Made by a program: the position numbers and the translations under genes | Assembly (NCBI GenBank): GCA_964567665.1 | Contig: CAZMNN010000005.1 | Coordinates: 13,752 to 77,751 of the forward strand | Length of the DNA stretch: 64,000 nucleotides | Direction: 5' to 3' | Origin: an uncultured Lentisphaeraceae bacterium | GTDB taxonomy: Bacteria; Verrucomicrobiota; Kiritimatiellia; RFP12; UBA1067 | In this document: positions 1,589 through 55,714 of the stretch, in pieces | How positions within the stretch are numbered: position 1 is the stretch's first letter | Layout of the letters: every line of letters begins with the position of its first letter | The notes under the pieces: model-generated | What the model saw: the letters and a program-made list of their open reading frames with translations, nothing else | Databases searched by the model: none | Told to the model about the DNA's origin: nothing

Positions 1589-1595
1589 CTGCGGC

Positions 1596-2486: not shown

Positions 2487-2508
2487 CGTGAACAGGCGAA
2501 CGAAGTCC

Positions 2509-5373: not shown

Positions 5374-5402
5374 TTGCTAATGAAACCCGATTGTTGTATA
5401 CT
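5374..5402 (+). promoter_or_regulatory. sigma70-like promoter TTGCTA-N17-TATACT upstream of zinc-ribbon gene
   Basis: -35 5374-5379, -10 5397-5402, 20 nt before ATG 5423 with AAGGAGAAGGA SD. Confidence 0.45.
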
Positions 5403-5422
5403 TTGCGCCAAGGAGAAGGAAC

Positions 5423-6426: not shown

Positions 6427-6430
6427 CGGA

Positions 6431-15322: not shown

Positions 15323-15871
15323 ATGAAGAACATAATCGCAACCATCTGCATAGCCGCAGCGGCGGTGGCCGGAGCCGAGATGAAGGTCGCCGTGGTCAGC
15401 CTTGAGGTACTCATAAAGAACCATCCGAACCACGAGACGAACAGGACGCTCGTGAAATCTACGGCAGACGACTACCGCAAGAAGATGGAGACGTATCAGG
15501 AACAGGCCAAGGCGCTGATGGACGAGGGGAAGAAACTTCAGTCAGACTGGCAGAACCCGATGCTCTCTGCATCGTCAAAGGCAGATCTCCAGAAGAAGCT
15601 TGAAGGAATACAGCGCAAGCTCTTCGCCGCCCAGCAGGATATGCGGGCGCAGGATCAGCGCTACCAGGATGAGCTTGCCGACCTCCAGCAGCGTCTTTTC
15701 AAGATCGAGAAGAAGGATGTCGAGGACAAGATTGCGGAATTTGCGAAAGCCGGCGGCTACGACATGATCGTTGACGTGGCGGCCTGCGGATTCGTCAAGC
15801 CTGAACACGATGTCACTGATGCGGTGCTTGCGAAGATGGGCGTTGATTCGTCAAAGAAGAAGACCGAATAG
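15323..15871 (+). CDS. skp: periplasmic chaperone Skp/OmpH
   Basis: Signal peptide, about 180 aa, Lys/Gln-rich coiled-coil tentacle region; conserved position after bamA. Confidence 0.7.
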   Translation: MKNIIATICIAAAAVAGAEMKVAVVSLEVLIKNHPNHETNRTLVKSTADDYRKKMETYQEQAKALMDEGKKLQSDWQNPMLSASSKADLQKKLEGIQRKLFAAQQDMRAQDQRYQDELADLQQRLFKIEKKDVEDKIAEFAKAGGYDMIVDVAACGFVKPEHDVTDAVLAKMGVDSSKKKTE

Positions 15872-22494: not shown

Positions 22495-22523
22495 CTGACG
22501 CAGTTTGCGAATTGTGGTATAAT
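22495..22523 (+). promoter_or_regulatory. promoter CTGACG-N17-TATAAT with TG extension (TGGTATAAT)
   Basis: -10 at 22518-22523, about 40 nt before ATG 22565, which has AAAGGAG SD. Confidence 0.45.
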
Positions 22524-22564
22524 TGACAACAGTTTTCTTTCGTCACAACCAAAGGAGTATACAT

Positions 22565-31111: not shown

Positions 31112-32428
31112 ATGCAAAACAGAAGAGGATTCTTGAGGAACGCTGCGGCGTTTGGCGCATTCGCCATCGTGCCTGCCCGCGTCCTGCGCGGAGCGACAGC
31201 TCCGTCCAACCAGCTCACACGCGCTCTGATCGGCTTCGGTTCGATTGCGCATTCCGCAAACCATCTCCCGTTCAAGGGGTCGCGCCTCATCGGTCTCTGC
31301 GATCCGTACGAGGCTCGCGTACAGGCAGGTCTGAAGGCCGCGCAGGACAACGGCTTCGGAAAGATTAAGGGCTACGGGAACTTCCTTGAGCTGCTTGCAG
31401 ACAAGGATGTCGATATCGTCCACATCTGCACGCCGCCGCACTGGCATGGCTGCATGAGCGTGATGGCGGCGAACGCCGGAAAGGACATCTGGTGCGAAAA
31501 GCCGATGACGCGCACCGTGGGTGAAGGAAAGCGCGTGATGGAGGTCGTAAAGGCCAAGAAGCGCATGTTCCGGCTCAACACGTGGTTCCGCTTCCAGAGC
31601 ACATTCTACGGATTCGGCACGACCGTCAAGCCTATTCGTCAGGTTGTCGAAAACGGACTTCTCGGCGAAGGTCCGATCAAGTGCACGTTCGGCGCGGGAC
31701 AGGGCTTCAGCTGGAAGTTCTTCTGGTCTGGCCGCGTCAACTCCGCGCCGGAGCCGATACCCGCCGGGTTCGATTGGGACATGTGGCTCGGTCCGGCGCC
31801 GTGGAAGCCGTACACCGCGCACCGCGCCGGCACATCCTTCCGCGGCTACTGGGACTACGATTCGGGCGGGCTTGGCGACATGGCTCAGCACTATCTCGAT
31901 CCGCTCCAGTACCTTCTCTGCAAGGACGAGACGAGTCCGGTGAAGGTCGATTACGTTGGCCCGAAGCAGCATCCGGAATCCGTCGGTCGCTTCGACCGCA
32001 TCACGCTCACGTATGCGGACGGCACGGAGGTCGTGCTGGACGGCGACGAATCGCTCAAGGGCGAACCGCTCCTTCGCGGCTCTAACGGACTGTGCGTCTA
32101 CCCGAAGGCGAAGGACGGCAAGACACTCCGCCTTGTTGACGCCAGCGGCAAGGAGCTGAACGCGGAGAAGATCCTCTCCGACCTGCCCGAGCCGGCGCCT
32201 CAGCAGACCGACTTCATCGACAGCTGCACGAACCGCAAGACGTTTGCGCTCAACGAGTCGAACGGCTTCCGCTCCTGCACGATGTTCAACCTCGGAATCG
32301 CGGCTGAGCGCCTTGGACGCGGATTCAGGTTCGACCCCGAAACGCTCCACGCCGTGGACGATCCGGCGGCAGACCGTTTCCTCTACCAGTCCATGCGCGA
32401 ACCGTGGCGCAAGGAGATGTGGGGCTGA
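31112..32428 (+). CDS. Gfo/Idh/MocA-family oxidoreductase with twin-arginine (TAT) signal
   Basis: MQNRRGFLRNAAAFGAFA TAT motif; Rossmann N-terminus and DIVHICTPPHWH region typical of the family. Confidence 0.7.
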   Translation: MQNRRGFLRNAAAFGAFAIVPARVLRGATAPSNQLTRALIGFGSIAHSANHLPFKGSRLIGLCDPYEARVQAGLKAAQDNGFGKIKGYGNFLELLADKDVDIVHICTPPHWHGCMSVMAANAGKDIWCEKPMTRTVGEGKRVMEVVKAKKRMFRLNTWFRFQSTFYGFGTTVKPIRQVVENGLLGEGPIKCTFGAGQGFSWKFFWSGRVNSAPEPIPAGFDWDMWLGPAPWKPYTAHRAGTSFRGYWDYDSGGLGDMAQHYLDPLQYLLCKDETSPVKVDYVGPKQHPESVGRFDRITLTYADGTEVVLDGDESLKGEPLLRGSNGLCVYPKAKDGKTLRLVDASGKELNAEKILSDLPEPAPQQTDFIDSCTNRKTFALNESNGFRSCTMFNLGIAAERLGRGFRFDPETLHAVDDPAADRFLYQSMREPWRKEMWG

Positions 32429-32459
32429 TTCCAGATACATGACTACCGGAGAAGCAGAA

Positions 32460-33980
32460 ATGAAGAAACTTTTTTGTGCGATGATGATTGCCGGCGCGAT
32501 GGCCGCCGGTGCGGCGGATCCCAACAAGTACGCCGACTACGGAGCGGGCATGGCGCCGGACAAGACCTACCCGATGGCGGTGGAATGGCACGCCGCCAAC
32601 CGCGCCGCGATCGAGACGGAGACCTCGGACGACAAGCTTGCCGGGTTCGTGGCGGATTCGGCAAGCGCGAAGGCTCTGCTCGCCAAGGTCAAGCCGGCGT
32701 ACGACACCGACCCGATGGTGGCTGCGCAGGTCGCCGCAGCGAGCCAGTACGTGATGCGCACCGAACCGTCGTGGTGGGAGTTCTGGGCATGGTTCTCGGA
32801 CTCCGATCGTGACGTCTGGACTGCTGCGCTGCTCGAAGCGGCGGCTGACGCGAAGGACGCATACTGCAAGATGCTGTTCCTCGACCAGCTGCGCTGGTGC
32901 GGGCGGCAGGATCAGGCGGCGAACGTCCTTGAGATCGGAAAGGCGTCAAACGACAGGGGCGTGATGCAGTTCGCCGACATGGTGGCGGCGGAACTCGATC
33001 CTGAAGCCGGATGCGCGAAGGCCTGCTGCAAGGTCAATTGCCCGTACGGCAGCTGGGCGCTGACGCTTCCGTTCGATGCGATGAACGCCGGACACCTCAT
33101 CCTGTCGAAGGGCGCGGACGGCAAGCCCACGGCCACGCTGCTGTGGCGCTGGGGAAGTCCGTTCACCGTCGCCGGTGATGACCTCAAGGTCTGCAAGGAC
33201 GGCTTCACCCTCACGTTCGGCAACCACAAGCCGAAGGATCTGCCGCAGGACAAGAGCGCATGGCGCAGCGACCGCGTGATCGCGAAGATCTGCGGGGACT
33301 GGGCGGCCTGCACCCTCCAGAAGGTGGACGGCAACGGCAAGGTCGTCGGCGCGGTGCAGACGTTCTCCGCAAAGCGCAATCCGCCGATCGGTCCGAAGCC
33401 GGACCTCGCGAAGGCCGTGCGCGGCACTCCGGTGAACATCCTGGGCGGGACGATCGACGACTTTGAGTTAATGGAGAAGTCACTGACGAACGGCTGGACG
33501 CTGAAGGACGGAGTGCTCTCCAACCGCATTATGCGCGACACCAACGGCAAGTCGCTCCACAAGAACGGAAACCTCCGCACGAAGCGCACCGATTTCTTTG
33601 ACTTCAACCTCAAGTACGAAGTGCGCGTCCTTCCGGGCTGCAACTCCGGCGTGTATCTGCGCGGCATCTACGAGATTCAGGTGCTCGACAGCTACGGCAA
33701 GCCGGTCGACTGCCACAACATGGCGGCGTACTACGGCCGCGTTACGCCCCGCGTTGCGGCAGAGAAGAAGGCCGGCGAATGGCAGACGGTTGACGTCACG
33801 CTCTACAAGCGGCATCTCACGGTTGTCCTGAACGGCGTGAACATCATCGACAACGTGCCGGTCGTCGGAATCACCGGCGGCGCAATGACGGCGAACGAAT
33901 TCACGCCGGGACCGCTCTACATCCAGGGCGACCACTCTGACGCCGACTTCCGCAACATGGTGCTCACACCGTTGAAGTGA
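32460..33980 (+). CDS. secreted protein with C-terminal DUF1080 domain
   Basis: ATG 32460 with signal peptide MKKLFCAMMIAGAMAAGAA; C-terminal roughly 170 aa match the DUF1080 pattern (YLRGIYEIQVLDS...ADFRNMVLTP); the ORF track start 32244 overlaps the upstream gene. Confidence 0.6.
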   Translation: MKKLFCAMMIAGAMAAGAADPNKYADYGAGMAPDKTYPMAVEWHAANRAAIETETSDDKLAGFVADSASAKALLAKVKPAYDTDPMVAAQVAAASQYVMRTEPSWWEFWAWFSDSDRDVWTAALLEAAADAKDAYCKMLFLDQLRWCGRQDQAANVLEIGKASNDRGVMQFADMVAAELDPEAGCAKACCKVNCPYGSWALTLPFDAMNAGHLILSKGADGKPTATLLWRWGSPFTVAGDDLKVCKDGFTLTFGNHKPKDLPQDKSAWRSDRVIAKICGDWAACTLQKVDGNGKVVGAVQTFSAKRNPPIGPKPDLAKAVRGTPVNILGGTIDDFELMEKSLTNGWTLKDGVLSNRIMRDTNGKSLHKNGNLRTKRTDFFDFNLKYEVRVLPGCNSGVYLRGIYEIQVLDSYGKPVDCHNMAAYYGRVTPRVAAEKKAGEWQTVDVTLYKRHLTVVLNGVNIIDNVPVVGITGGAMTANEFTPGPLYIQGDHSDADFRNMVLTPLK

Positions 33981-34095: not shown

Positions 34096-34172
34096 TGGTC
34101 GGAGCGACGAGATTTGAACTCGTGACCTTTTGCACCCCAAGCAAACGCGCTACCAGACTGCGCTACGCCCCG
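34096..34172 (-). tRNA. tRNA-Pro (anticodon GGG)
   Basis: Reverse complement folds as CGGGGCG-TA-GCGC-AGTCTGGTA-GCGC-G-TTTGC-TTGGGGT-GCAAA-AGGTC-ACGAG-TTCAAAT-CTCGT-CGCTCCG-A-CCA (77 nt, encoded CCA). Confidence 0.85.
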
Positions 34173-34266: not shown

Positions 34267-35502
34267 ATGAGCTATCAGGAAGCGAAAAAGAAATACGCCG
34301 TGCTCGGCGTAGACACCGAAGCGGCGATAAAGTCGCTGCAGAAGGTTTCCATATCGATGCACTGCTGGCAGGGTGATGACGTCGGCGGGTTCGAGAACGA
34401 TCTCGGCGCGACTGGCGGCATCCAGGCCACGGGCAACTATCCGGGTAAGGCGCGTACGCCGGAGGAGCTTATGGCGGATATCGACAAGGCCCTGTCCCTG
34501 ATTCCCGGCAAGCACCGCATCAACCTTCACGCCTGCTATGCGATCTTCGAGGACGGCAAGAAGGTGGACCGCAACAAGCTTGAGCCGAAGCATTTCAGGA
34601 AGTGGGTGGAATTTGCGAAGAAGCGCGGTCTCGGCCTTGACTTCAATCCGACGTTCTTCTCGCATCCGCTGGCCGACGGGCTTACGCTTGCAAGCGAAGA
34701 TCCCAAGGTTCGCAAGTTCTGGATCGAGCACGGCATCGCGAGCCTCAAGATCGCCGAGTATTTCGGCAAGGAGCTTGGTACGCCCTGCACGGTGAACTTC
34801 TGGGTGCCGGATGGCTTCAAGGATGAACCGTCCGACCGCTTCGGGCCGCGCAAGCGCCTCAAGGAATCGTACGACAAGATCTTCAAGTACAGGTACAACA
34901 GGAAGCTCTGCGTACCTACCATAGAGTCGAAGCTCTTCGGCATCGGGGTTGAGAGTTGCACACCCGGCTCCCACGAGTTCTACATGTGCTACGCCATGAA
35001 GAACAACATCCTCTGTCTGCTTGACACCGGCCATTTCCACATCTCCGAGAACGTCGCGGACAAGATAAGTTCGCTTCTGCTCTTCTCGGGCAAGGTGGCA
35101 TTCCACGTATCGCGTCCCGTCCGCTGGGACTCCGACCACGTAATCCGTCTTGACGACTCCGTCATTGCCTGTGCGCATGAGATTGTGCGGAACGGTGTGG
35201 AGAACTTCATCATCGCCCTCGACTACTTCGATGCGTCCATCAACCGCATTGCGGCCTGGGTGCTTGGAATGCGCAACATGCAGAAGGCTCTTCTTCAGGC
35301 GATGCTTGAGCCAAGCGAGACGCTCAAGGCGCTGCAGGATGCCCGCCAGTTCACGGAGCAGCTTGTCCTTCAGGAGGAGCTTAAGGCCTATCCGTGGCAG
35401 GAGGTCTGGAAGGAGTTCTGCTCAAGGGCGAAGCTTCCGGCCGATGAATGCTGGATGGCGGAGGTGCTGAAGTACGAACGCGATGTGCTTTCCAGGCGCT
35501 GA
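34267..35502 (+). CDS. rhaA: L-rhamnose isomerase
   Basis: Near-collinear match to E. coli RhaA (VSMHCWQGDDV.GFEN, TGGIQATGNYPGKAR, LGLDFNP.FFSHP, ESKLFGIGVES, VSRPVRWDSDHV, DFFDASINRIAAWV). Confidence 0.9.
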   Translation: MSYQEAKKKYAVLGVDTEAAIKSLQKVSISMHCWQGDDVGGFENDLGATGGIQATGNYPGKARTPEELMADIDKALSLIPGKHRINLHACYAIFEDGKKVDRNKLEPKHFRKWVEFAKKRGLGLDFNPTFFSHPLADGLTLASEDPKVRKFWIEHGIASLKIAEYFGKELGTPCTVNFWVPDGFKDEPSDRFGPRKRLKESYDKIFKYRYNRKLCVPTIESKLFGIGVESCTPGSHEFYMCYAMKNNILCLLDTGHFHISENVADKISSLLLFSGKVAFHVSRPVRWDSDHVIRLDDSVIACAHEIVRNGVENFIIALDYFDASINRIAAWVLGMRNMQKALLQAMLEPSETLKALQDARQFTEQLVLQEELKAYPWQEVWKEFCSRAKLPADECWMAEVLKYERDVLSRR

Positions 35503-35605
35503 GCGGAAAAGATTCGCGGCTGAGGACGCGCCAAAAAAGGGATTGCGTTTTCAGACGCGAAATGAGATAATCCAAAACCAATCGAACCAATTAGGAGACA
35601 CAGAA

Positions 35606-36352
35606 ATGAAGACTTCAAAAAAAGGATTTACGCTCGTCGAGCTGCTCGTTGTGATCGGCATTCTCGGCATTCTCATGGGTGCGCTGTTTCCGGCGATCTC
35701 GTCCGCGATGATCAAGGCGAACCTTTCGGCCTGCGGTATGCGCGGGCGCAACCTGTTCGTGGCCATCACGTCCGCCAACACCGAGCGTGAAGCTCTTGGT
35801 CTCGGCAATGTGTGGCCGAAGACGCAGGCGGAGGAGGGTGCGGATACTAACACCGATCCGCTTTCCGGCGCGGTCAGCTCCGGCGCGGACTACTTCACCT
35901 ATCTGTTCGACATGGCGAAGATCTCGGATTCCACTGCGTGGAAGCCGTATGTGACTGGCGTGGATCTTTCGGTGCTTAACGGCGCCGGCGTCCCGGCCAT
36001 TCCGAACGGAGCCACGAAGATCGACGGCAAGAACCTGCTCTGGTGCGTTGCCGCGAACGTGACGGACGAGATTTCCGACGTCTACCCCGTCCTCTTCTCG
36101 CGCAACATCCCCGTCAGCGCGATGAAGACGTACGAGAAGACCTATGACGGCGGCTCCACCGAAATCAAGATCGGCAAGAGCAACGGCGCCAAGTACGACA
36201 CCCCGTTCTCCAACAAGGCGTTCGTGCTGATCCGCAAGGGTGGCGCGGTGATTACGCAGACGGCCAAGTACGCACTCTCGTCCGTGATGTTCAACAAGCA
36301 GCCGTACACCATCGACGCCGATCCTGCACCGCAGTTCCTCGATGTCGAATAA
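35606..36352 (+). CDS. prepilin-type N-terminal cleavage/methylation domain protein (type II secretion / type IV pilin-like)
   Basis: MKTSKKGFTLVELLVVIGILGILMGALFPAI class-III signal and N-methylation motif. Confidence 0.7.
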   Translation: MKTSKKGFTLVELLVVIGILGILMGALFPAISSAMIKANLSACGMRGRNLFVAITSANTEREALGLGNVWPKTQAEEGADTNTDPLSGAVSSGADYFTYLFDMAKISDSTAWKPYVTGVDLSVLNGAGVPAIPNGATKIDGKNLLWCVAANVTDEISDVYPVLFSRNIPVSAMKTYEKTYDGGSTEIKIGKSNGAKYDTPFSNKAFVLIRKGGAVITQTAKYALSSVMFNKQPYTIDADPAPQFLDVE

Positions 36353-38626: not shown

Positions 38627-38703
38627 TGGTCGGAGCGGAGGGATTTGAACCCTCGGCCTTTTGGTCCCGAACCAAACGCGCTACCAGACTGCGCTACGCT
38701 CCG
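38627..38703 (-). tRNA. tRNA-Pro (anticodon CGG)
   Basis: Reverse complement CGGAGCG-TA-GCGC-AGTCTGGTA-GCGC-G-TTTGG-TTCGGGA-CCAAA-AGGCC-GAGGG-TTCAAAT-CCCTC-CGCTCCG-A-CCA (77 nt). Confidence 0.85.
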
Positions 38704-41821: not shown

Positions 41822-43348
41822 TCATTGCCTTGCCGTGAATATCGCCGTAACTGCGTAGTACGGGTCGCTTGTGTAGCGGCAGCCGAGACGGCGAAGCCCC
41901 GCCTCGTCGCCAGGCGTTGCCATGTGCGTCATGTGGACTTCGCATCCGCGAAGTTCGTTCAGCCTTTCTGCGGCAATCGCCGCCGCCGGGTTTGTGGCGC
42001 ACGATATGGCCAGGCCAATCAGGGCCTCATCAAGGTTCAGCGACGTGTAGCCGCCCTTGAGGATGTCGTGCTTGACGTGCGTGATCGAGCGGATGATTGA
42101 TTGCGCGATGAGCGGAATCTGCTCCGGAATGCCAGCCAGAAGCTTTATGGCGTTCAGCATCATCGCTGCGCAGGCGTGGAGATCGTCGGAGTTTCGTCCA
42201 GTCACTATGCGCCCGTCCTTGAGCTGTATGGCTGCGCCGGAGACGATGTTTCCGCCGGCCTTGCCCTTGCCCGCGTCCTTCGCCGTCTGCGCCGCCTGTC
42301 GCGCCGCCACAACCGGAATGCGGTCTTCCGTCTTGAGGTTGAGTTTGCGCATCAGAGCCTCGGCACGGTTCATTGAATCGCGGTCTACGCGTCCGTCGGT
42401 GAAGTCGCACTGGTAGCGGAGGAACCTGCGGATGACCTCCTGCTTTGACGCTTCGCACACAATCCTGTCGTCGATGATGCCGAACCCTATGCGGTTCACG
42501 CCCATGTCCGTGGGTGACTTGTACGGACATTCACCTTTCGTCATGCGCTCCCATATCGCCTTGAGCAGGGGATATGCATCAACGTCGCGGTTGTAGTTGA
42601 CGGTCGTCTTCCCGTACGCCTGAAGATGGTACGGGTCGATCATGTTGCAGTCCTTGAGGTCAATCGTCGCCGCCTCGTACGCCACGTTCAGCGGGTGCTC
42701 AAGCGGCAGGTTCCACACGGGGAACGTCTCGAACTTTGCGTACCCGGCTCTCGCCCCGCGGCGGTATTCGTGGTATATCTGCGAAAGGCACGTGGCGAAC
42801 TTGCCGGAGCCGGGGCCGGGGGCTGTCACAACCACGATGGGACGCTCCACGGGCACGTACTCGTTCTTGCCGTAGCCCGCCTCGGAGACGATCGTCTCGA
42901 CGTCAGCGGGATACCCCTGCGTCACGTAGTGGTACCATACGCTTATGCCCTGCATCTCAAGACGTCTGCGGAACTGCTGAGCCGCGATCTCCCCGGTGTA
43001 GCGCGTAATCACGACTCCGCGCACGAGAAGCCCCAGCGTCTTCAGGTCGCCGATCAGCTTCAGTGCGTCGTCGGCGTAGGATATCCCGAAGTCGGCGCGC
43101 ATCTTCTTGTGTTCGATGTCGCCGGCGTAGATGGCAAGGATGATCTCGGCCTGATCCTTGAGCGACTGCAGAAGGCGGAGCTTCACGTTCGGGTCGTATC
43201 CCGGAAGACACCTGGCCGCATGGAAGTCGTTCATCAGCTTGCCGCCGAACTCAAGGTAGAGCTTGCCGAGCTTTTCCGCTCGGCGGCGAATCTCGTCTCC
43301 CTGCTCGCGCAGGTACTTCTCGTTGTCAAATCCCAGTTTCATAGACAT
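41822..43348 (-). CDS. DUF1846 (UPF0371) family protein
   Basis: N-terminus MKLGFDNEKYL...LYLEFGGKL...DFHAARCLPGYDP resembles UPF0371 proteins as I recall them; 508 aa; function unknown. Confidence 0.55.
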   Translation of the reverse strand: MSMKLGFDNEKYLREQGDEIRRRAEKLGKLYLEFGGKLMNDFHAARCLPGYDPNVKLRLLQSLKDQAEIILAIYAGDIEHKKMRADFGISYADDALKLIGDLKTLGLLVRGVVITRYTGEIAAQQFRRRLEMQGISVWYHYVTQGYPADVETIVSEAGYGKNEYVPVERPIVVVTAPGPGSGKFATCLSQIYHEYRRGARAGYAKFETFPVWNLPLEHPLNVAYEAATIDLKDCNMIDPYHLQAYGKTTVNYNRDVDAYPLLKAIWERMTKGECPYKSPTDMGVNRIGFGIIDDRIVCEASKQEVIRRFLRYQCDFTDGRVDRDSMNRAEALMRKLNLKTEDRIPVVAARQAAQTAKDAGKGKAGGNIVSGAAIQLKDGRIVTGRNSDDLHACAAMMLNAIKLLAGIPEQIPLIAQSIIRSITHVKHDILKGGYTSLNLDEALIGLAISCATNPAAAIAAERLNELRGCEVHMTHMATPGDEAGLRRLGCRYTSDPYYAVTAIFTARQ

Positions 43349-43395
43349 GGTTCAAAGTGCAGGGAGTTCAGTGTTTCGCGACGCAGGACGGGGCG

Positions 43396-43962
43396 TCAGC
43401 GGGCGTTGAGTTCGTCGAGTATCTTCTGTATCTTCGTCTTGCACCGGCCGCATCCGCCGCCGGCCTTGGTGAAGTTCGTGACCTCTTCGACCGTCGTGAG
43501 GCCGTTCTCCGTGATCACTCGCCGGACTTCGTTCTCGCTCACGTTGTAGCAGGTGCACAGAATCTCGTCCTCAAGGTTGCGGTCGGCGTTGTCGCCCGTC
43601 TCGTAGTTCTTGATTGCGGCCTCAAGCGCTTCACGCCCCATCACGGAGCAGTGCATCTTCTGCGGAGGCAGCCCCCCAAGATAGTCGGCTATGTTCTGGT
43701 TCGTTATCTTCTTGGCTTCCTCAAGCGTCTTGCCGATCACCATTTCGGTGAGCGCCGAACTGGACGCAATCGCGGATGCGCAGCCGAACGTCTGGAATTT
43801 CGCGTCCTTTATCCGCCCCGCCTCATCCAGCTTGAACTGGAACGTAAGCGCATCTCCGCAGGCGAGCGAGCCGACAGTCGCCGTTCCGTCGGGATTGTCC
43901 ATCTTCCCCATGTTCCGCGGATTGCGGAAGTGGTCAAGCGTCTTCTCAGTGTAGTTCCACAT
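43396..43962 (-). CDS. nifU: NifU-type Fe-S cluster scaffold (IscU-like domain plus BFD-like [2Fe-2S] domain)
   Basis: GSLACGDALTFQ, FGCASAIASS, HCSV cysteine triad; central CTCYNVSE...GGGCGRCK. Confidence 0.75.
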   Translation of the reverse strand: MWNYTEKTLDHFRNPRNMGKMDNPDGTATVGSLACGDALTFQFKLDEAGRIKDAKFQTFGCASAIASSSALTEMVIGKTLEEAKKITNQNIADYLGGLPPQKMHCSVMGREALEAAIKNYETGDNADRNLEDEILCTCYNVSENEVRRVITENGLTTVEEVTNFTKAGGGCGRCKTKIQKILDELNAR

Positions 43963-44086
43963 TTTCTGTTAACCTCAAAGCACACGATTATACCAAAACG
44001 CCATTTCGTTTTAAAGCGTCGCATGGACGCTGGCGGCGTTCCGCATTCGCCGTTGTCGCTGGCGGCGAATGCACGGTCTTGCCGGC

Positions 44087-45778
44087 CTACTGATCCTCCG
44101 TCACGCGCATGATCTCCCTGACGGACGTCACGCCCTTGAACGCCTTGTGCCAGCCGTCCTCGCGAAGGGTCTTCATGCCTTTCGCAAGGGAGAGTTCACG
44201 GATCTGCGTCGCGTTCTGCCGCTTGATGATCGCCGACTCGATCTCGTCGTCAACCTCAAGCACCTCGAATATCGCCCGCCGTCCCTTGTAGCCGGTCTTT
44301 GAGCAGTGTTCGCATCCGACCGGCTCGAACACGGTGTCTTTCTCCGGCGGATACGGGAGGTCGTAGTACTTCATGTTCAGCGGCGCCTCCTTCATGCATT
44401 CCGGACACAGCCTTCGGGTGAGACGCTGCCCCATCACGCCGGCCACGGCGGAGGCGATGAGGAACGGCTCCACGCCCATGTCGGTAAGACGCGGGAACGC
44501 GCCTGCGGCGTCGTTCGTGTGCAGGGTCGAGAACACCATGTGACCCGTAAGCGAGGCGTTGATTGCGATTTCGGCCGTCTCCCTGTCGCGGATTTCGCCG
44601 ACCATTATCTTGTCCGGATCCTGTCGCAGGAATGCGCGGAGCGTGCGGGCGAAGTCCAGACCGATATCCTTGTTCATCTGCACCTGGATGATGCCGTCCA
44701 TCTGGTATTCGATCGGATCTTCGGCTGTGAGAATGCGCACATCCATCGTGTTCACTTCGTGCAGGAAGGAGTAGAGCGACGTCGACTTGCCAGAACCCGT
44801 CGGGCCGGTCACGAGAAAGATGCCGTTCGGACGGCGTATGATCTTGTCCACAACGGCGAAGTCGCGCTCGGAGAACCCGAGATCCTTCATTTTCACGAAG
44901 CTTCCGCTCTTTGCGAGCAGACGGAGGGAGATGGATTCGCCCCACGCTCCCGGCATCGTCGATACGCGGATGTCGATGTCCTCTCCGCCGATGCGGATGC
45001 CGATGCGTCCGTCCATAGGCAGTCTCTTCTCGGCGATGTCGAGGTTGGACATCACCTTGATTCGCGAAATGATTGCGCTCTTCAGCCTGTTGAGCTGCGG
45101 CGGCACATCCACCTTGTGCAACATTCCGTCGATGCGGTACCGTATGCGCAGCTCCGTCTCCTGCGGCTCGATGTGGATGTCCGTTGCGCCCTGCCTGTCC
45201 GCCTCGGCGATGATCCTGTTCACGAACTTTACGATGCTCGCCTCTTCGCCTTCGGCACCGACGTCGATCTTCGAGATGGCGGCATCCATGTCGTCCACGG
45301 AGTATCTGCCGTCCTCAAGCATCTTCTCGACCGCCTCTGCGCCGACGCCATAGAACTTCTTCACGGCCTTGTCGATGTCCTCGGCCGGGGCGAGCGCGAT
45401 GTGCACCGGGCATCCGGCCGCAAGGCGCAGACCGTCGGCGATCGCCGTGTTGAACGGATCCGCCGCCGCGATGGTCAAGGCATTGCCGTCGAACCTGATC
45501 GGAAGTGCGTTGTACTGATACACCGCCGACGCCGGAAGCTTTGCGATGACGTCCGGACGCGGCTGGATCTTTTCGATGTCCACGTATTCCAGCCCAAGGA
45601 CGGACGCGATCTTTTCGAGGAACAGCGTCTCCTTCTCTCCGCCGAACTTCAATATGCCCTCAAGCAAAGGCATCCCCGGATTTGCCGCCAATCCGTCGTC
45701 TATGCGCCCAAGGGCGACATCGGAATATAGACCGGTGGCCTTGAGCAGCCCCTCGGCCAGTTTTGAAACCTGTTTCAT
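44087..45778 (-). CDS. type II secretion / type IV pilus assembly ATPase (GspE/PilB family)
   Basis: Walker A GPTGSGKST, Asp box, His box, tetracysteine CPEC...CEHC motif, N-terminal T2SSE_N domain; no gspF or gspD adjacent. Confidence 0.85.
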   Translation of the reverse strand: MKQVSKLAEGLLKATGLYSDVALGRIDDGLAANPGMPLLEGILKFGGEKETLFLEKIASVLGLEYVDIEKIQPRPDVIAKLPASAVYQYNALPIRFDGNALTIAAADPFNTAIADGLRLAAGCPVHIALAPAEDIDKAVKKFYGVGAEAVEKMLEDGRYSVDDMDAAISKIDVGAEGEEASIVKFVNRIIAEADRQGATDIHIEPQETELRIRYRIDGMLHKVDVPPQLNRLKSAIISRIKVMSNLDIAEKRLPMDGRIGIRIGGEDIDIRVSTMPGAWGESISLRLLAKSGSFVKMKDLGFSERDFAVVDKIIRRPNGIFLVTGPTGSGKSTSLYSFLHEVNTMDVRILTAEDPIEYQMDGIIQVQMNKDIGLDFARTLRAFLRQDPDKIMVGEIRDRETAEIAINASLTGHMVFSTLHTNDAAGAFPRLTDMGVEPFLIASAVAGVMGQRLTRRLCPECMKEAPLNMKYYDLPYPPEKDTVFEPVGCEHCSKTGYKGRRAIFEVLEVDDEIESAIIKRQNATQIRELSLAKGMKTLREDGWHKAFKGVTSVREIMRVTEDQ

Positions 45779-45899
45779 TGCCGCAGATTATCCCATAATC
45801 CTCCGCCGAACGCAACCGCCGCGAAAAACTTCCGTCCGTCGGCAGATTTGCCGCAAGAAAGCCGGACTGCGAAATGAAAGAAAGTTGATGATTTTGCTT

Positions 45900-45913
45900 G
45901 CGCATGGATGCGC
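45900..45913. repeat. palindrome GCGCATGGATGCGC just upstream of a TATGAT -10-like hexamer (45916-45921)
   Basis: In the divergent intergenic region between gspE and the low-GC gene; operator-like; second palindrome CCCTCGCGAGGG at 45951-45962 in the 5-prime UTR. Confidence 0.3.
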
Positions 45914-46004
45914 GATATGATACCTTTCCCTCCGTCAACAGAAGAGTCGGCCCTCGCGAGGGGCGGACTTTCCGTCGTTCGCGGGAAAAGCAAAGGAAAA
46001 CACA

Positions 46005-47798
46005 ATGAAAACATTGAAGTCTATGCTTGCAGTGGCGACGGCTGTCGGCCTTGCCACCGCAGTTCAGGCCGTGCAAGACAAGTACGTATCTACCGGCTTT
46101 GAAAAGCTGGATCAGGGAGACCCGGTGACGACGGGAGTTAAGGATAACAGCAATGGCGATTCTTACTTCTATTTTGCCGGTAGCAATGACGATGACAATG
46201 AATCGACAATTGTCGCTTTTGAGGACAATGGATCGCCTGTAGCACGTCCGAAAGGTGTGTCACGATTCACTGATGCCGACAGTACGGCCAGGACAAATGC
46301 ATTGCAGGTCAGCACGGGTACCGATCCTCTCCTTCGCACTTTCCTTCCAGCTCCGATTAGCAACAGCGGAACTCTTTCACAATCTCCGATTGAGGAGGTG
46401 ACGTACATTGATACATTGGTTCAATTCACCGTCACTCCGTCAACGGACAATGTGACTCCAGGTGAAGATGACAAGTTGATGATCTATCTCAAAGAAAGCA
46501 TAGTGTCCAACAATACTGATGTTGCGTCCGATGGCACTGATGCTGAAAGTGGTGAACCTGCCAGTACTCCACCGGTAACCAACCTTGTGGTGCTTGCCGG
46601 TTTTCATGGTGCGGAAGGTGTGGTTTCTTACGAATACAATGTCATGAATCCTGGACTTTCGGTTGTTCCCGGAAAGTGGTATCGCCTTACCGTAAAGGTA
46701 ATACCCGATGTCACGCTTTATGTTGATGAAGAAACTAAGGAATACGCCCATGCCGATTTAAGCCATGTAGGGTTCTCCGTCTATATCGATGGCATTCAGT
46801 GCGTATTTGACAAGATGATTTACGATGAGACGATAGAGACGGAGGATGCTCCAGGTTATCTGTATATTGATTCCGTGTACAACAGTGAAGCGAATGGAGC
46901 GCAGATTGATAATAAGGCGATATTGCTCTCATTGCTCGCTGAAAATGGTAAAAGCTTGAACGATTCTAACCAGCCTGTGCTTTACGCTGTAGGTTTTGCC
47001 GGTGAAGGCATGGTGGACGATTTGGTGTATACCACGTCAGATCCTTTCGCATCAACGGTTGATTTCACGCTTGCTTTCGGTGCCGACAATACGATTTCAA
47101 GTGTTGAATATACGGTTGGTGAAACGGTGGGCACCATACAGAACCGGACATTTGAGGATGTTGTGGTTGGTTCGCTTGTGGAAATCAAAGACATTGGATT
47201 CGCTGATGGCTACGAGTTTGACAAATTTACCCTTGCAGGGGTGACGCAGGAGGCTACGACGACAGATGGATCTGTTGCGACGTTTAAGATCAATGATGAT
47301 GCGACAGGTAATGTCAGCCTCACGATTGTGGCGAAGGAAAAGGCCGCTACGTATCCGACATATGTCGATACAAATGACACGACCAGCGCGAGCAAATATG
47401 TTGCATGGTTAGAGGATGTCAGCGGTATTGCCGCAGGCGGGGATGCCTCTGCATATGAGAAGCAGTTCCTCTTGAATCAGGCGATCAGCAAGGCAATCGC
47501 CGACAATGCGCTTGTCATCAAGTCCATCACGGAGAACGCGAACGGCGGCTGGGATATCGTCATCGGCTGCTCGGTTGAGGGTGTTGGTCTCTCGACCACT
47601 GAAGGTGAAAATGCACAGGTTTGCAACGGCTACCTCGCGGTCAGCTACACTTCGGATCTCTCCGGCACCTGGACGACGGAGAACATCAATGTCACGGCTG
47701 GCACCGAGAACGGTACGGTCAAGGTGAACGTCAACAAGAGTGGTGCGAAGTTCATGAAGGTTTCGCTCAAGGCGGCGAAGGAGCCTACGCAGGAGTAA
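46005..47798 (+). CDS. secreted hypothetical protein (597 aa) in an anomalously low-GC patch
   Basis: Signal peptide MKTLKSMLAVATAVGLATAVQA; Thr/Val/Asp/Gly-rich; no recognised domain; GC about 42-50% over 46000-47400 versus about 60-65% elsewhere. Confidence 0.5.
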   Translation: MKTLKSMLAVATAVGLATAVQAVQDKYVSTGFEKLDQGDPVTTGVKDNSNGDSYFYFAGSNDDDNESTIVAFEDNGSPVARPKGVSRFTDADSTARTNALQVSTGTDPLLRTFLPAPISNSGTLSQSPIEEVTYIDTLVQFTVTPSTDNVTPGEDDKLMIYLKESIVSNNTDVASDGTDAESGEPASTPPVTNLVVLAGFHGAEGVVSYEYNVMNPGLSVVPGKWYRLTVKVIPDVTLYVDEETKEYAHADLSHVGFSVYIDGIQCVFDKMIYDETIETEDAPGYLYIDSVYNSEANGAQIDNKAILLSLLAENGKSLNDSNQPVLYAVGFAGEGMVDDLVYTTSDPFASTVDFTLAFGADNTISSVEYTVGETVGTIQNRTFEDVVVGSLVEIKDIGFADGYEFDKFTLAGVTQEATTTDGSVATFKINDDATGNVSLTIVAKEKAATYPTYVDTNDTTSASKYVAWLEDVSGIAAGGDASAYEKQFLLNQAISKAIADNALVIKSITENANGGWDIVIGCSVEGVGLSTTEGENAQVCNGYLAVSYTSDLSGTWTTENINVTAGTENGTVKVNVNKSGAKFMKVSLKAAKEPTQE

Positions 47799-47843
47799 AG
47801 GTTTGAAATAGAACCTGCTGTCGGCGGGAATGTCGCCGCAGCG

Positions 47844-47886
47844 AAGCGGGAGCCGGATGCCATCATGGCGTTCGGCTTCCGCTTTT
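47844..47886 (+). terminator. rho-independent terminator AAGCGGGAGCCG-loop-CGGCTTCCGCTT followed by TTTT
   Basis: 12-bp stem with one G-U pair, 46 nt after the stop of the low-GC gene; abuts the next promoter. Confidence 0.5.
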
Positions 47887-47894
47887 GATATAAT
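47886..47894 (+). promoter_or_regulatory. extended -10 box TGATATAAT upstream of GH16 gene
   Basis: Exact match; ATG 48014 lies about 120 nt downstream. Confidence 0.4.
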
Positions 47895-48013
47895 CCTGCA
47901 CTGGATGTTGATGTGTTCGACATTCAGACGGGCATGGTGATTTGCGGACAGATCAAGTCTGCAGAAAGGATGATGCAGGTATGGTGATGATGGAAGTAAA
48001 CGGCGGCGGAAAC

Positions 48014-49012
48014 ATGAACAGGTTTATGGTTGGCCTTGCGGTGGTTTTTTCATCTGCGATGCTGTTTGCCGCGAACGACGGGACGCAGGTTCTGCAGGCG
48101 TCAGGGAAGAAGCAGCAGGGAAAAGTCTACCGGGAGATAGCCGATCTGCCGGTCGTCTGCCGGTCTGAGGTGTCCGTACCGGGTGAGGAACCCTCGTTCT
48201 TGCCGAACGGGCGGGCATTCCGGCTTGTATGGCACGACGAGTTCGGCGGGACTTCCCTTGACACGACAAAGTGGGGCTACCGCACGAACTTCTGGGGACG
48301 CTCCGCGCACTGGTTCGCGAAGCCGGAGGATAACGCAGTCGAAGTGCGTGACGGACTTCTGCGCCTGAAGCTTGTCAAGCGTCCCGACGGGCAGTTCGTC
48401 TCGCCACAGTTGCAGACGGGTGAGCTGCTTTGGGACTTTCCGGCGGAGGCGAATCCGTCCGGATTCTGGCCGTTAGGCAAACGGGAGAAGCCGAAGTTCC
48501 TCAAGAAATACGGCTATTTCGAATGTCGCGCCCGTCTGCAGCAGCATCCCGGCTGGTGGAGTGCGTTCTGGATGCAGACCGAGGCTCAGGGCGCAACGCT
48601 CGATCCGGCGGTCTCCGGTATCGAGCACGACATCATGGAGTCGTTTGACCCCGGCGAGGTTCTTCCGGCCTGTTTCCACTACAACGGCTACGGAGCGGAC
48701 TACAAGGGCTTCCGCATACCCGACGTCGCGAAAAACGACGAAGCGATCCTGAAGGTGGACACCGAGACGTTCCACACATACGGCTTTCTCTGGACGCCTG
48801 AAGGCTATGAGGTGTACGTCGATGGCCGTCTGCGCGGGCGGAGCGCACGTGCCGTCTCGCACGTCCCGGAGTTCGTGCTGCTTACGACAGAGACGAAGTG
48901 GTACCGCAACGGGCGCATGACGGGGAAGGGCGTTCCGGAGCTTGAGGCCTCGGCAAAGGCCGGGGATGAATTTCTTGTGGACTATGTGCGCGTCTACGAT
49001 CTCGTGCCGTGA
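48014..49012 (+). CDS. glycoside hydrolase family 16 (laminarinase/beta-glucanase-like), secreted
   Basis: Signal peptide; catalytic motif GIEHDIMES (E-x-D-x-x-E), WSAFWM; ORF track start 47942 is probably too early. Confidence 0.7.
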   Translation: MNRFMVGLAVVFSSAMLFAANDGTQVLQASGKKQQGKVYREIADLPVVCRSEVSVPGEEPSFLPNGRAFRLVWHDEFGGTSLDTTKWGYRTNFWGRSAHWFAKPEDNAVEVRDGLLRLKLVKRPDGQFVSPQLQTGELLWDFPAEANPSGFWPLGKREKPKFLKKYGYFECRARLQQHPGWWSAFWMQTEAQGATLDPAVSGIEHDIMESFDPGEVLPACFHYNGYGADYKGFRIPDVAKNDEAILKVDTETFHTYGFLWTPEGYEVYVDGRLRGRSARAVSHVPEFVLLTTETKWYRNGRMTGKGVPELEASAKAGDEFLVDYVRVYDLVP

Positions 49013-54658: not shown

Positions 54659-55714
54659 ATGGCGGTCTCTGACGAAGTGTCTGTTGGAATCGTCGGGTGC
54701 GGCAGATGCACGACATTCGGGCATCTGCCGGCTCTCGCGAAGCTCAAGGGTATGTACCACATCGCCGCAGTGTGCGATGTGGTCAAGTCCAGGCGGGACT
54801 GCATCAGCGCAGAGTTTCCGGATGCGCGCCACTACCGCAGAATCGAGGACATGGTGGATGCGCCGGACATCAACCTTGTGCTGGTGGCGACGCCGACCCT
54901 TGAGCATGAAAGCATCGTCCTTGAATGTCTCAACCGTGGGCTGTGGACGGTGTGCGAGACGCCTGTCGCGGTGTCCCACGACGGGACACTTGTCCTTCGC
55001 GGGGCGTCCGTCAAGGTCGGCCGCAAGCTGATTGCGGCTACGCCGGCCCTCTTCTCGAACGAGTTCAGGCTCGCCATGATGGCGCGTTCGCTGCGCAAGA
55101 TAGGCAGGCTTTACGACATCCGCATCCGCAAATCGACCTATCAAAGGCGCATGGATTGGCAGGCGACGGCGAAGCGCGCTGGCGGGGCTGCGCATTTCGC
55201 CGCCCAGGAGCCGACGCTCCAGGCGCTCACGATACTTGGTGCGCCGCCCGTGCAGATGTGGAGCGAAACCAAGAAGCTTGTCGCGCTCGGCGATGCTGAG
55301 GACTACGTCCGTCTTCTGATGCGGACTGCGGACGGTGTGACGGCCGACATTGAGACCAACTCGGCCGTCGTGAGGACCGGCGAGCCTGAGATCATGCTTC
55401 GTGGCACACGCGGCTCGTTCTCCATATTCCCCGGAACGACGATAGGGCGCTATGCCATAATCGATCCGGCGCAGCACCTTCCGAACAAGCGCAGCAGCGT
55501 GGCGCTTCCGCCGCTTGAGGCGCAGACGGAAAACATACGCGTGGCGTATGACGAACTTGCGCTTCCCGATCCGATGCCGCCGTACGAGGCCTTCTGGAAG
55601 GCGGTGTACAGGACTGTCGTTCTCGGAGAGCAGTTCCCTGTGGATTTCGACCTTGTGGTCGAGATGTCACGGTACATCGGAATCGTCCGCAAGTCCATCC
55701 CGATCGCCATTTGA
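54659..55714 (+). CDS. Gfo/Idh/MocA-family NAD(P)-dependent oxidoreductase (cytoplasmic)
   Basis: VGIVGCGRCTTFGHLPAL Rossmann N-terminus and family-typical EHE region; starts 3 nt after the etfA-like stop. Confidence 0.65.
   Translation: MAVSDEVSVGIVGCGRCTTFGHLPALAKLKGMYHIAAVCDVVKSRRDCISAEFPDARHYRRIEDMVDAPDINLVLVATPTLEHESIVLECLNRGLWTVCETPVAVSHDGTLVLRGASVKVGRKLIAATPALFSNEFRLAMMARSLRKIGRLYDIRIRKSTYQRRMDWQATAKRAGGAAHFAAQEPTLQALTILGAPPVQMWSETKKLVALGDAEDYVRLLMRTADGVTADIETNSAVVRTGEPEIMLRGTRGSFSIFPGTTIGRYAIIDPAQHLPNKRSSVALPPLEAQTENIRVAYDELALPDPMPPYEAFWKAVYRTVVLGEQFPVDFDLVVEMSRYIGIVRKSIPIAI

Follow-up and report, generated by a model that had tools for sequence, protein, structure and literature searches.

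Within the window, as we term the whole 64-kb stretch of DNA analyzed, which comes from an uncultured gut bacterium of the Kiritimatiellae, one gene encoding a 597-residue protein differs sharply in base composition from its neighbors, which are housekeeping genes. The question is what produced this difference and what the gene is for. The initial annotation offered two explanations, horizontal acquisition or strong selection for different expression. Our analysis points to another one: the gene is probably a recombining, diversifying locus for a surface or extracellular protein, and the low-GC part of its open reading frame (ORF) is the module that is exchanged. Coordinates below are those of the window, and features lie on the forward strand unless stated otherwise.

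The compositional anomaly is real. GC content is 0.44–0.50 across about 46000–47350 versus 0.57–0.64 in the flanks (300-nt windows), and in 1-kb windows (mean 0.597, s.d. 0.028) the minimum of the entire stretch is 0.47 at 46251. The dip had been placed from 45840 onward; its onset lies nearer 46000, with GC at 0.53–0.55 over 45700–46149. The shift in codon usage that had been noticed by eye was borne out by the statistics. The ORF (46005–47798, defined by the ORF call and by homologs) is the strongest codon-usage outlier among the 35 genes of the window, with a third-position GC content (GC3) of 0.534 versus a mean of 0.764 (s.d. 0.046) for the 34 other genes (z = −5.0) and a CAI-like index at z = −4.2. 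Since the amino acids of the ORF and the native codon table together predict a GC3 of 0.768, the anomaly is synonymous. Along the ORF, GC3 is 0.46 for residues 37–382, 0.50 for residues 383–450 and 0.71 for residues 451–597, the native value being 0.76, and the deficit is restricted to the N-terminal two-thirds. A low-GC3 N-terminal part joined to a native C-terminal part recurs in all eight full-length family loci (8/8), and among 22 family loci with an estimable coding background, the N-terminal domain has a GC3 lower than that background in 20.

Comparison with the strain L001/L029 indicated what the dip corresponds to. Its flanks are 99.0–99.4% identical in nucleotide sequence to the window on both sides, and four of its flanking proteins (GspE, NifU, DUF1846 and GH16) match those of the window at 100%. 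Between these flanks lies, at 46113–47235 (the 3′ end is approximate), an allelic cassette that has been exchanged and that makes up the center of the GC dip. Relative to the L001/L029 allele this cassette is unalignable or only 15–77% identical in nucleotides, and over residues 37–382 the proteins are 32–58% identical. L018, a more distant strain, gives the reverse picture: its flanks are only about 96% identical, yet it shares the allele of the window at 96–99%, and allele and flank relationships are incongruent. In a single sample series, alleles of two classes, A and B, both occur beside the same GspE protein sequence. The classes are 43–56% identical to each other, and the C-terminal modules (C-modules) reassort freely. 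A second species displays the same pattern with at least four alleles at one locus, and some segments are common to genomes whose flanks are only about 67% identical.

The gene also evolves differently from its surroundings. Against L018, dN/dS is 1.05 for the 597-residue gene versus 0.06 for GspE and 0.10 for GH16, and in the L017 pair it is 0.56 versus 0.05 and 0.22 for the flanks; these ratios are based on few substitutions, and small recombination tracts can inflate them. The C-module has a dN/dS of 2.5, and a search for compensating frameshifts found none. Within it, allele comparison revealed a short hypervariable patch at residues ~453–472 (47360–47419), where identity to L001 falls to 68%, against 97–100% in the surrounding region. 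The patch is also unlike that of L018, from which it differs by scattered nonsynonymous changes and no frameshift. When proteins are clustered at 90% identity, the cluster of the neighboring ATPase holds 186 members versus six for the 597-residue protein.

We propose that the variable N-terminal part is swapped between strains and lineages by homologous recombination, with the promoter, leader and signal-peptide region serving as one stretch of homology and the conserved downstream sequence as the other, and that the C-module is swapped independently. The outcome is several deeply divergent allele classes, held at one fixed chromosomal site under diversifying selection. Other devices for generating variants, namely a DGR, silent cassettes or an invertible segment, were considered and rejected, as every part of the locus occurs just once in the window; neither a reverse transcriptase nor a recombinase is found among the annotated neighbors. 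Neither L017 nor the second species has the 17-nt inverted repeat seen at 45972/48065.

The low GC3 of the exchanged module could reflect foreign origin or mutational decay of rarely recombining alleles. Under decay, balanced alleles that seldom recombine would be shielded from GC-biased gene conversion or from codon selection, and their composition would shift gradually toward AT. Such decay is possible, and it is the alternative that fares best, though we would not call it probable. The deficit is family-wide and follows the variable modules, the conserved modules keep native GC3, and the divergence of the allele classes marks them as old. On the other side, segments are demonstrably exchanged between lineages, and such exchange would equally account for a shared non-native composition. 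Decay concerns the cause of the dip alone and is compatible with a recombining, diversifying locus.

The product of the ORF appears to be a Sec-exported, acidic protein composed of three modules, a concanavalin-A (ConA)-like beta-sandwich, an Ig-like domain and the C-module. The mature protein is ~61 kDa with a pI of 4.1, rich in Val, Thr, Ala, Asp, Ser and Gly and poor in Arg (1.0%), His (0.5%) and Met (0.9%), with three Cys. As the initial annotation had reported, a signal peptide can be read in the letters themselves (MKTLKSMLAVATAVGLATAVQA, followed by VQ); this putative Sec-type peptide covers residues 1–22 (46005–46070), with predicted cleavage after VQA. It is the most conserved segment of the family, the majority-residue fraction being 0.80 over residues 1–20 versus 0.17–0.6 elsewhere, and the region contains neither a lipobox Cys nor an N_methyl motif. 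The S-layer-like traits of the protein (acidic, Cys-poor, rich in Thr, Val, Ala, Asp and Gly and, judging from the signal peptide, exported) are only weakly diagnostic.

The N-terminal domain, residues ~25–345 (46077–47039), is a ConA-like (LamG-like) beta-sandwich with hypervariable loops at residues 161–180 and 241–320. Its invariant core motifs include DTLVQFT, W-Y-R-L and GFAGEGxVDD, which we take to correspond to the structural strands of LamG-like domains. The invariant residues R111, D136, W225, R227 and D338 are candidates only for a carbohydrate or Ca2+ site. The Ig-like beta-sandwich follows at residues ~350–445 (47052–47339; GC3 0.50), as indicated by the secondary structure of the AF2 model (pLDDT 83–94). 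The C-module, residues 451–597 (47355–47795; GC3 0.71), consists of a helix, a low-confidence linker and a small beta domain. It is kept within a species and reassorts separately from the N-terminal module. Modeled alone it gave a poor structure (pLDDT 55), and a search with it alone returned only five fragments, one of them half of a split gene. The C-module may be the cell-attachment part that holds the protein to the cell; no anchoring or sorting module (SLH, CWB2 and the like) was found in the protein (Pfam, NCBIfam) or in 63 scanned family members (Pfam).

Contrary to what had been supposed, the protein is no orphan. A first homology search gave 232 matches and a profile search 1,267 clusters (50% identity); gut or rumen metagenomes of the Kiritimatiellae type are the source of every homolog found. 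The remark that it has no recognizable domain holds for curated families: the protein has no match in Pfam (E ≤ 0.1) or NCBIfam, the family profile has none among PDB sequences at E ≤ 1, and none of the 63 scanned members matches a Laminin_G_3, legume-lectin-like, GH16 or CAZyme-type Pfam family. Structure prediction, suggested earlier as a check for beta-helix or Ig-like adhesin folds, did recover an Ig-like domain; the N-terminal domain is predicted to be a curved two-sheet beta-sandwich (jelly-roll), which places it in the ConA-like lectin/glucanase superfamily. The best Foldseek match (E = 2.4e-5, probability 0.98–0.99) is YwfG (PDB 7yl4/7yl6), at 10–11% identity and low whole-chain TM scores, and such matches fall in a very broad superfamily that includes enzymes (GH16, PL7, GH131). 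YwfG, a surface protein of Lactococcus lactis, carries a ConA-like L-type-lectin domain and binds mannose (PMC9815576). The predicted model shares with it the ConA-like domain; YwfG, unlike our protein, is an LPXTG-type Gram-positive protein, and sugar binding by the 597-residue protein is only putative.

Most likely the protein would act as an exposed, lectin-like ligand-binding protein at the cell surface or outside the cell, with its variable face the presumed target of phages and/or host immunity. The same fold would also suit an exported carbohydrate-active enzyme, either a glycoside hydrolase or a polysaccharide lyase built as a beta-jelly-roll, which diversifies with its substrate and not as an antigenic surface protein. 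We consider this unlikely. The protein has no GH16 ExDxxE or ExDxE motif, the CAZyme-type Pfam families went unmatched (0/63), and its invariant motifs match LamG-like structural strands. A dN/dS near 1 and allele classes as divergent as those found within one species would, moreover, be unusual for an enzyme.

The neighboring ATPase gene (44087–45778, reverse strand) is divergent to the 597-residue gene and belongs to the GspE/PilB family, with an MshEN N-terminal domain (Pfam T2SSE 5.9e-136, MshEN 1.3e-19), and it reaches neither the GspE nor the PilB cut-off of NCBIfam. The initial annotation rightly described it as isolated, as neither gspD nor gspF occurs in the 64-kb window. Apart from one N_methyl gene at 35483–36352, 9.7 kb from the ATPase, no platform, secretin or pseudopilin genes are present. 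This ATPase might power a type II secretion or type IV pilus-like machine, with the 597-residue protein as its dedicated cargo or accessory. A T2SSE-family ATPase does lie within 2 kb of a family gene in both best-sampled species, which keeps a functional link conceivable. We nevertheless regard the cargo role as quite improbable, given the classical Sec signal peptide in place of a prepilin N_methyl motif and the missing gspD and gspF. Between the two species the ATPases share only 41–44% identity and are therefore not obviously orthologous, and T2SSE ATPases are absent from the retrieved flanks of L009, L014, L015, L027 and L028 (within 10 kb in L009, L014 and L015). An obligate linkage of the family to GspE, raised as a question in the initial annotation, is thus rejected, the adjacency being found in two species only. 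In most other lineages the conserved neighbor is a giant secreted protein (~2,700 residues) encoded after the family gene; it is absent from the 64-kb window. The divergent ATPase is most likely merely a neighbor. PilC (PDB 7oa7/7oa8), a minor pilin that in Streptococcus sanguinis carries a grafted lectin module, differs in the same respects, as the 597-residue protein lacks a pilin N-terminus and the linkage of its family to an ATPase is not conserved.

The most constant part of the locus lies upstream of the ORF. A promoter-like element at 45898–45926 has a −35 hexamer TTGCGC (45898–45903), a 17-nt spacer, an extended −10 TG (45918–45919) and TACCTT (45921–45926). Its activity is suggested by its conserved architecture: an A/T-rich tract, CTTGC[AG], a spacer and TGnTAYnnT are kept in 19 of 19 family loci, and the composite pattern has 29 occurrences in 373 kb, each before a family gene. 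A generic sigma-70 scan did not detect it. The two palindromes reported previously are both present, and neither is quite what it seemed. The first, GCGCAT-GG-ATGCGC (45900–45913), is imperfect, with 6-nt arms and a 2-nt spacer; it sits inside the −35/spacer region and is lineage-specific. The second, CCCTCGCGAGGG (45951–45962), forms the 5′ arm of a longer hairpin and does not stand alone, a local hairpin for CCCTCGCGAGGG being less well supported than the long one.

This hairpin (45953–45985), recognized by covariation, has an 8-bp outer stem, a bulge and a 6-bp inner stem, and it lies within a probable 5′ untranslated leader of ~71 nt (45934–46004). Conservation suggests where transcription probably starts: past the discriminator region, which varies, it restarts exactly at the 5′ end of the leader, whose first nucleotides form the invariant block GTCAACAGAAGAGTCGGC (45934–45951). 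The leader is 85–93% identical in nucleotides between lineages in which the first 120 protein residues are 37–64% identical. Across 16 sequences, 96.4% of the hairpin cells are paired and compensatory double changes occur in 6 of 14 pairs; none of 500 shuffles did as well, and slid controls were at most 54% paired. With a divergent clade added, double changes affect 7 of 14 pairs (26 cells), the outer stem changing from CCCTCGYGAG/TTCRCGGG to TTCCGAAG/CTTCGGAA. The z-score of the single-sequence minimum free energy is only −1.45. A covariance model built on the hairpin, R1, gave 24 solid matches (E ≤ 3.5e-4), including five loci outside its training set, all directly 5′ of family genes. Hairpin and promoter occur before every family gene and nowhere else in the 373 kb. 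Rfam 15 has no covariance-model match at E ≤ 1 in 45700–48000, and the structured leader is both conserved and previously undescribed. Downstream of it, a Shine-Dalgarno-like AAGGA (45993–45997) can be read 7 nt before the ATG, and AAAGGAAAA is kept in all aligned leaders.

At the other end of the gene, the clean terminator noted earlier was confirmed by folding. It has a perfect 20-bp stem, a 3-nt loop and a U-run (47843–47885), and it is preceded by two smaller hairpins (47799–47842). The region 47796–47900 folds at −59 kcal/mol (z = −7.7), and 0 of 200 shuffles were as stable. A simple scan had missed it because some of the short T-run is paired within the stem base, and the T that remain beyond the stem are too few for the scan's tail criterion. 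With its own promoter, leader and terminator, the gene appears to be transcribed alone. Stabilizing or regulatory stem-loops occur in the 5′ untranslated regions of mRNAs for abundant envelope proteins, such as ompA and several S-layer genes. The locus resembles these in its long leader, in a conserved hairpin upstream of the Shine-Dalgarno sequence and in a monocistronic gene for a presumed envelope protein, and it differs in the invariant 18-nt 5′ block, the restriction to one protein family and the lack of an Rfam match.

Many contigs of ~2 kb contain the gene only, and a reading of these as assembled transcripts, which would imply high expression, was rejected, as repeats explain the contig ends. 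The L016 contig (2,007 nt) begins 203 nt upstream of the ATG inside arrays of heptamer repeats, and such contigs are therefore better read as assembly breaks at repeats. Heptamer arrays also flank the gene in L004 and L006.

Horizontal acquisition, as first suggested, thus stands in part: the low-GC portion is not an inserted island but an allelic module that homologous recombination moves between strains and lineages. A one-off event, in which a foreign island from a low-GC donor was recently inserted, would agree with the strongly atypical composition and codon usage and with the window allele having the lowest GC3 in its species (0.46 versus 0.56–0.57 for the class B allele). We judge it very unlikely. 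The gene, with conserved ends, occupies the same site in all nine contigs that carry an identical ATPase (9/9) and in more distant strains, and neither mobility genes nor flanking repeats accompany it, the nearest tRNA being 7.3 kb away. The homologs all come from the same bacterial group, each with the family-specific leader, none was found on viral contigs, and low GC3 is a family trait not peculiar to this genome. A phage origin was rejected as well, given the lack of homologs on viral contigs and the generic ConA-like nature of the viral fold matches. The other initial suggestion, that selection on the expression level of an abundant protein, or on the kinetics of its translation, shaped codon usage, would suit a gene with its own conserved promoter, structured leader and strong terminator, but it is highly improbable because ribosomal-protein genes of related genomes are high in GC3 (L35 0.85, L20 0.82, L34 0.76), the C-terminal third of the same mRNA is near native and the CAI-like index reaches its minimum, 0.435, in the exchanged module.

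A recombining, diversifying locus of this kind has parallels elsewhere. In flagellin and type IV pilin genes, conserved termini serve assembly or export and anchor recombination, and the exposed middle is hypervariable and often compositionally atypical. The 597-residue gene shares the conserved ends and hypervariable middle. In contrast, the promoter, leader and signal peptide anchor it on the 5′ side in place of a structural N-terminal helix, and the protein has no filament-forming domain and no N_methyl motif. The slpA-region cassette of Clostridioides difficile is similar in that divergent surface-protein alleles are swapped at a fixed locus independently of the genome background; its variable S-layer protein acts as an antigen and probably also as a receptor for phages (PMC7677006, PMC8809339). 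The two systems have no sequence or domain relationship, CWB2 and SLH being absent here. Our host is, unlike C. difficile, a diderm bacterium of the PVC group and the swap breakpoints lie inside one gene; a likeness in lattice formation or abundance is not implied.

A more far-reaching picture can be drawn only tentatively, and we hold it to be rather doubtful. The promoter and leader hairpin might form a new class of cis-regulatory RNA that controls an unrecognized structure on the cell surface of Kiritimatiellae from gut and rumen, composed of the lectin-like protein and the giant ~2,700-residue protein. The N-terminal module would then sit exposed as a tip or adaptor, subject to balancing selection by phages or the host, and the GC3 deficit the footprint of long-suppressed recombination in balanced alleles, not of foreign origin.

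Variable surface proteins are a familiar kind of system, of which this protein is probably a new example. For genome scanning, the locus illustrates that a GC dip within a gene marked an exchangeable module and not an inserted island. The family is large, and neither the protein nor its structured leader RNA has a curated model. Almost nothing is known of the surface of gut and rumen Kiritimatiellae, a largely uncultured group, and literature searches on an S-layer, pilins or type II secretion in this group found nothing relevant. As allele classes co-circulate in otherwise about 99%-identical genomes, the locus is a marker for strain typing and population genetics, and the 597-residue protein is a candidate receptor or adhesin for studies of phage–host and host–microbe interaction.

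The initial annotation had described a low-GC patch with a shift in codon usage, and this observation is confirmed, while its interpretation holds only in part. In 300-nt windows, GC is 0.44–0.50 over about 46000–47350 and 0.57–0.64 on either side. The dip is the most extreme in the window, with a 1-kb minimum of 0.47 at 46251 (mean 0.597, sd 0.028); just one further 1-kb window, 4501–5500 (0.542), is lower than the mean by over 2 sd. The ORF encoding the 597-aa protein, at 46005–47798 (+), has a GC3 of 0.534 against a mean of 0.764 (sd 0.046) in 34 other window genes (z = −5.0), and its CAI-like index lies at z = −4.2 relative to window genes. Because the same protein written with the native codon table would have a GC3 of 0.768, the codon anomaly is synonymous. 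GC3 is 0.46 for aa 37–382, 0.50 for aa 383–450, and 0.71 for aa 451–597, so the anomaly is limited to the N-terminal two-thirds of the gene.

This low-GC3 N-terminal part is an exchanged cassette. A strain carrying another allele, class B (contigs L001/L029), is 99.0–99.4% identical to the window on both flanks, and the GspE, NifU, DUF1846, and GH16 proteins show 100% identity between the two. The alignment is broken at 46113–47149, with the proteins 32–58% identical across the break, and recovers fully at about 47235, except for a 60-nt hypervariable patch at 47360–47419. In a more distant strain, L018, the flanks are ~96% identical to the window, yet the allele is the window's own at 96–99% identity. 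Nine contigs from one sample series encode an identical ATPase, beside which L031–L034 have the window's allele and L029 and L030 the other; over 8.7 kb, L031 matches the window at 100%. Allele and genome background are mismatched. L030 (ERZ27271040 k141_89928), compared with window ~41846–46112, encodes the identical GspE protein and has the class B allele. As its left flank is 91% identical and its gene content differs, with Glycos_transf_2 and Peptidase_M24 beyond DUF1846 in place of a 113-aa ORF and a sigma-54 regulator, the L030 region is mosaic beyond the cassette.

At least six N-domain classes, 43–56% identical to each other, occur in the window's species-level group, within which C-modules reassort freely: the family protein P0002 shares its C-module at 100% identity with P0005 and P0009, and the N-domains are 45–49% identical. 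A second species, from the Hadza gut, has at least four alleles at one locus with flanks about 98.5% identical, and two genomes with ~67%-identical flanks have an 881-nt segment of the family gene in common at 93.8%. Against L018, dN/dS is 1.05 for the family gene, 0.06 for GspE, and 0.10 for GH16; a frameshift artefact as the source of the high C-module dN/dS was checked and ruled out. At 90% identity, the ATPase cluster holds 186 member sequences and that of the 597-aa protein 6.

Two causes of the low GC3 remain, which are not mutually exclusive and may both apply. The variable modules may move from lineage to lineage without ever reaching equilibrium with host composition, or divergent balanced alleles may be drifting toward AT, out of reach of GC-biased conversion or codon selection. 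A low GC3 peculiar to the window genome is ruled out, as a low N-module and a native C-module are found in 8 of 8 full-length loci and, in 20 of the 22 loci with an estimable coding background, the N-domain has a lower GC3 than that background. The suggested horizontal acquisition survives as segment exchange between strains and lineages but not as an inserted island, for which there is no presence/absence polymorphism, mobility gene, flanking repeat, or adjacent tRNA. Selection for different expression, also suggested, fails as a high-expression codon set since ribosomal genes have a GC3 of 0.76–0.85. A DGR template, silent cassettes, and a conserved invertible segment were looked for at the locus and not found. 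A 17-nt inverted repeat (94% complementary) at 45972–45988 and 48065–48081 brackets the whole family gene, one arm coinciding with the hairpin's 3′ arm in the leader and the second falling within the GH16 gene. L001 and L018 also have the repeat, but L017 and the second species lack it, so it is probably due to chance.

The least expected result of the analysis is a conserved promoter and leader. Every family gene examined is preceded by an A/T-rich tract, a −35 element CTTGC[AG], a 17-nt spacer, an extended −10 element TGnTAYnnT, a short variable stretch, and a leader that starts with the invariant block GTCA(A/G)CAG. Leader nucleotide identity between lineages is 85–93%, whereas the first 120 protein residues are only 37–64% identical. 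The leader holds a 34-nt hairpin at 45953–45985. In 16 sequences, 96.4% of cells are paired, against at most 54% in register-shifted controls, and 6 of 14 pairs show compensatory double changes, a level reached in 0 of 500 shuffles. A covariance model built on these sequences gave 24 solid matches in 325 kb, each immediately 5′ of a family gene, five of these loci being outside the training set. In this divergent clade, the outer stem is wholly rewritten yet complementary; with this clade included, double changes occur in 7 of 14 pairs (26 cells). In 373 kb, promoter and leader combined into one pattern gave 29 matches, one for each family gene and none elsewhere. The leader has no match in Rfam and is a candidate new RNA motif. 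Judged from sequence, the upstream elements would act as a promoter with a putative transcription start at ~45934, and the leader would be functional.

Both palindromes noticed earlier in the 5′ region are present: the one at 45951–45962 makes up the hairpin's 5′ arm, and that at 45900–45913 lies in the −35/spacer region and is lineage-specific. The terminator described downstream is likewise confirmed as a perfect 20-bp hairpin at 47843–47885 (region fold z = −7.7).

The 597-aa protein is no orphan, as it had been called. Nearly all of the 232 matches from a first homolog search are metagenomic proteins without a name, mostly 550–600 aa long and in some cases about 950 aa. A profile search of 1.84 billion representatives gave 1,267 clusters at E ≤ 1e-3, of which 549 reached E ≤ 1e-30. 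In species-representative genomes, the family loci belong to gut and rumen MAGs that bear the label Kiritimatiellae or Kiritimatiellaeota or, for some bins, Lentisphaerae, Verrucomicrobia, or Bacteroidia; among the sources are Hadza human gut, rumen, yak, and sheep. The viral contigs searched held no homolog. The family is uncurated, and the reported absence of a recognisable domain agrees with our searches of Pfam, NCBIfam, and PDB sequences, which gave no match even with 63 members or the family profile. The signal peptide is present as described. An AlphaFold2 model from a 63-sequence alignment (pLDDT 78, pTM 0.72) gives a large beta-sandwich (aa ~25–345) and an Ig-like sandwich (aa ~350–445), followed by a helix, a low-confidence linker, and a small beta domain (aa 503–589).

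Many family members of 800–1,400 aa have extra C-terminal segments. L028 carries two tandem family genes, 1500–3185 (561 aa) and 3635–6484 (949 aa), with a leader before each, and in L027 a 933-aa member (2688–5489) directly follows rplA-rplJ-rplL. The gene in L019 (2664–4165) is broken into 306-aa and 194-aa ORFs with a 4-nt overlap, the leader still in front, and is a frameshifted pseudogene or an assembly error.

The window is core chromosome, encoding among others HemCD, glycogen phosphorylase, BamA, MutS, ParB, SecA, RhaA, PriA, YidC, and IleRS. Scattered among these housekeeping genes, two genes for 3-keto-disaccharide-hydrolase-domain proteins and two for GFO/IDH/MocA oxidoreductases (22523–24040, 31112–32428, 32244–33980, and 54659–55714) suggest oxidative glycoside-cleavage pathways. 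The window also has two tRNA-Pro genes, at 34096–34172 and 38627–38703 (−), with GGG and CGG anticodons and 4.5 kb between them. When L001 was compared with the window, an 80-nt stretch of L001 at the site of the CGG gene aligned with the GGG gene at 85% identity, which puts the two genes at about 85% identity to each other.

The divergent neighbour at 44087–45778 (−) is an ATPase of the GspE/PilB family with an N-terminal MshEN domain; its scores fall slightly short of the NCBIfam cut-offs for GspE and for PilB. As first noted, it lacks gspD and gspF partners, neither of which was found in the window. Same-strand NifU (43396–43962) and DUF1846 (41822–43348) genes follow, a possible operon that is unusual for a secretion ATPase. 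Adjacency to such ATPases is not a constant feature of the family: it was seen in only two species, whose ATPases are 41–44% identical, and the fetched flanks of L009, L014, L015, L027, and L028 contain no T2SSE ATPase.

The neighbour conserved across lineages is a gene for a homologous giant secreted protein of about 2,200–2,750 aa, 1–6 kb downstream and on the same strand in most lineages, often with an AAA_14/DUF4143 or ATPase_2 gene in between. It starts rightward at L004 16417, L022/L023 14171, L007 4081, L027 7775, and L028 6855, with diverged versions at L019 8625, L014 ~15620, and L015 ~17161; the 64-kb window has no homolog. Past the signal peptide the protein begins AEDYTYQSLTNLGP..., and it has no Pfam match save a Gly_rich_2 domain in one branch. 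The upstream regions (L022 ~14060–14170, L004 ~16300–16416, and L027 ~7660–7774) have a promoter of the family-gene type (CTTGCR, ~17 nt, TATGRTAT), whereas the conserved leader is particular to the giant genes and includes GGGTATGGGCGAACTGTACCC, likely a hairpin. The family-leader model gave a marginal match (E 0.4) upstream of the L014 giant gene, at 15329–15423. All intergenic gaps of L004 8200–16500 are filled with composite dispersed repeats, made up of heptamer arrays GGTAGWT and TTTRCGA and a 50-nt GC-rich palindrome (GCGCCCTCGCC...GGCGAGGGCGC); the same type lies upstream of the family gene in L006, L016, L020, and L021. These repeats are probably why many public contigs are ~2-kb and gene-only.

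We propose that the family gene would be a monocistronic unit comprising the conserved promoter, structured leader, Sec signal peptide, ConA-like and Ig-like variable modules, a species-conserved C-module, and a strong terminator. DNA from other strains or lineages would recombine in and swap the variable module, with the conserved 5′ region and conserved downstream sequence supplying homology, and the product would be under diversifying selection. We infer that it most likely lies exposed at the surface or outside the cell, binds a ligand, and is a target of phages and/or host immunity; no known anchoring domain is found in the 597-aa protein. The locus behaves like flagellin and pilin genes, which have conserved ends and variable middles. 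It is also similar in behaviour to the C. difficile S-layer cassette (PMC7677006, PMC8809339), and the fold of the N-domain resembles that of lectin-domain surface proteins, for example YwfG (PMC9815576), although by sequence the protein belongs to none of these families. The locus, found in an unstudied bacterial group, is of a well-known kind, that of recombining, diversifying surface-protein loci; along with it come an uncurated protein family and a leader that is a candidate for a new RNA motif.
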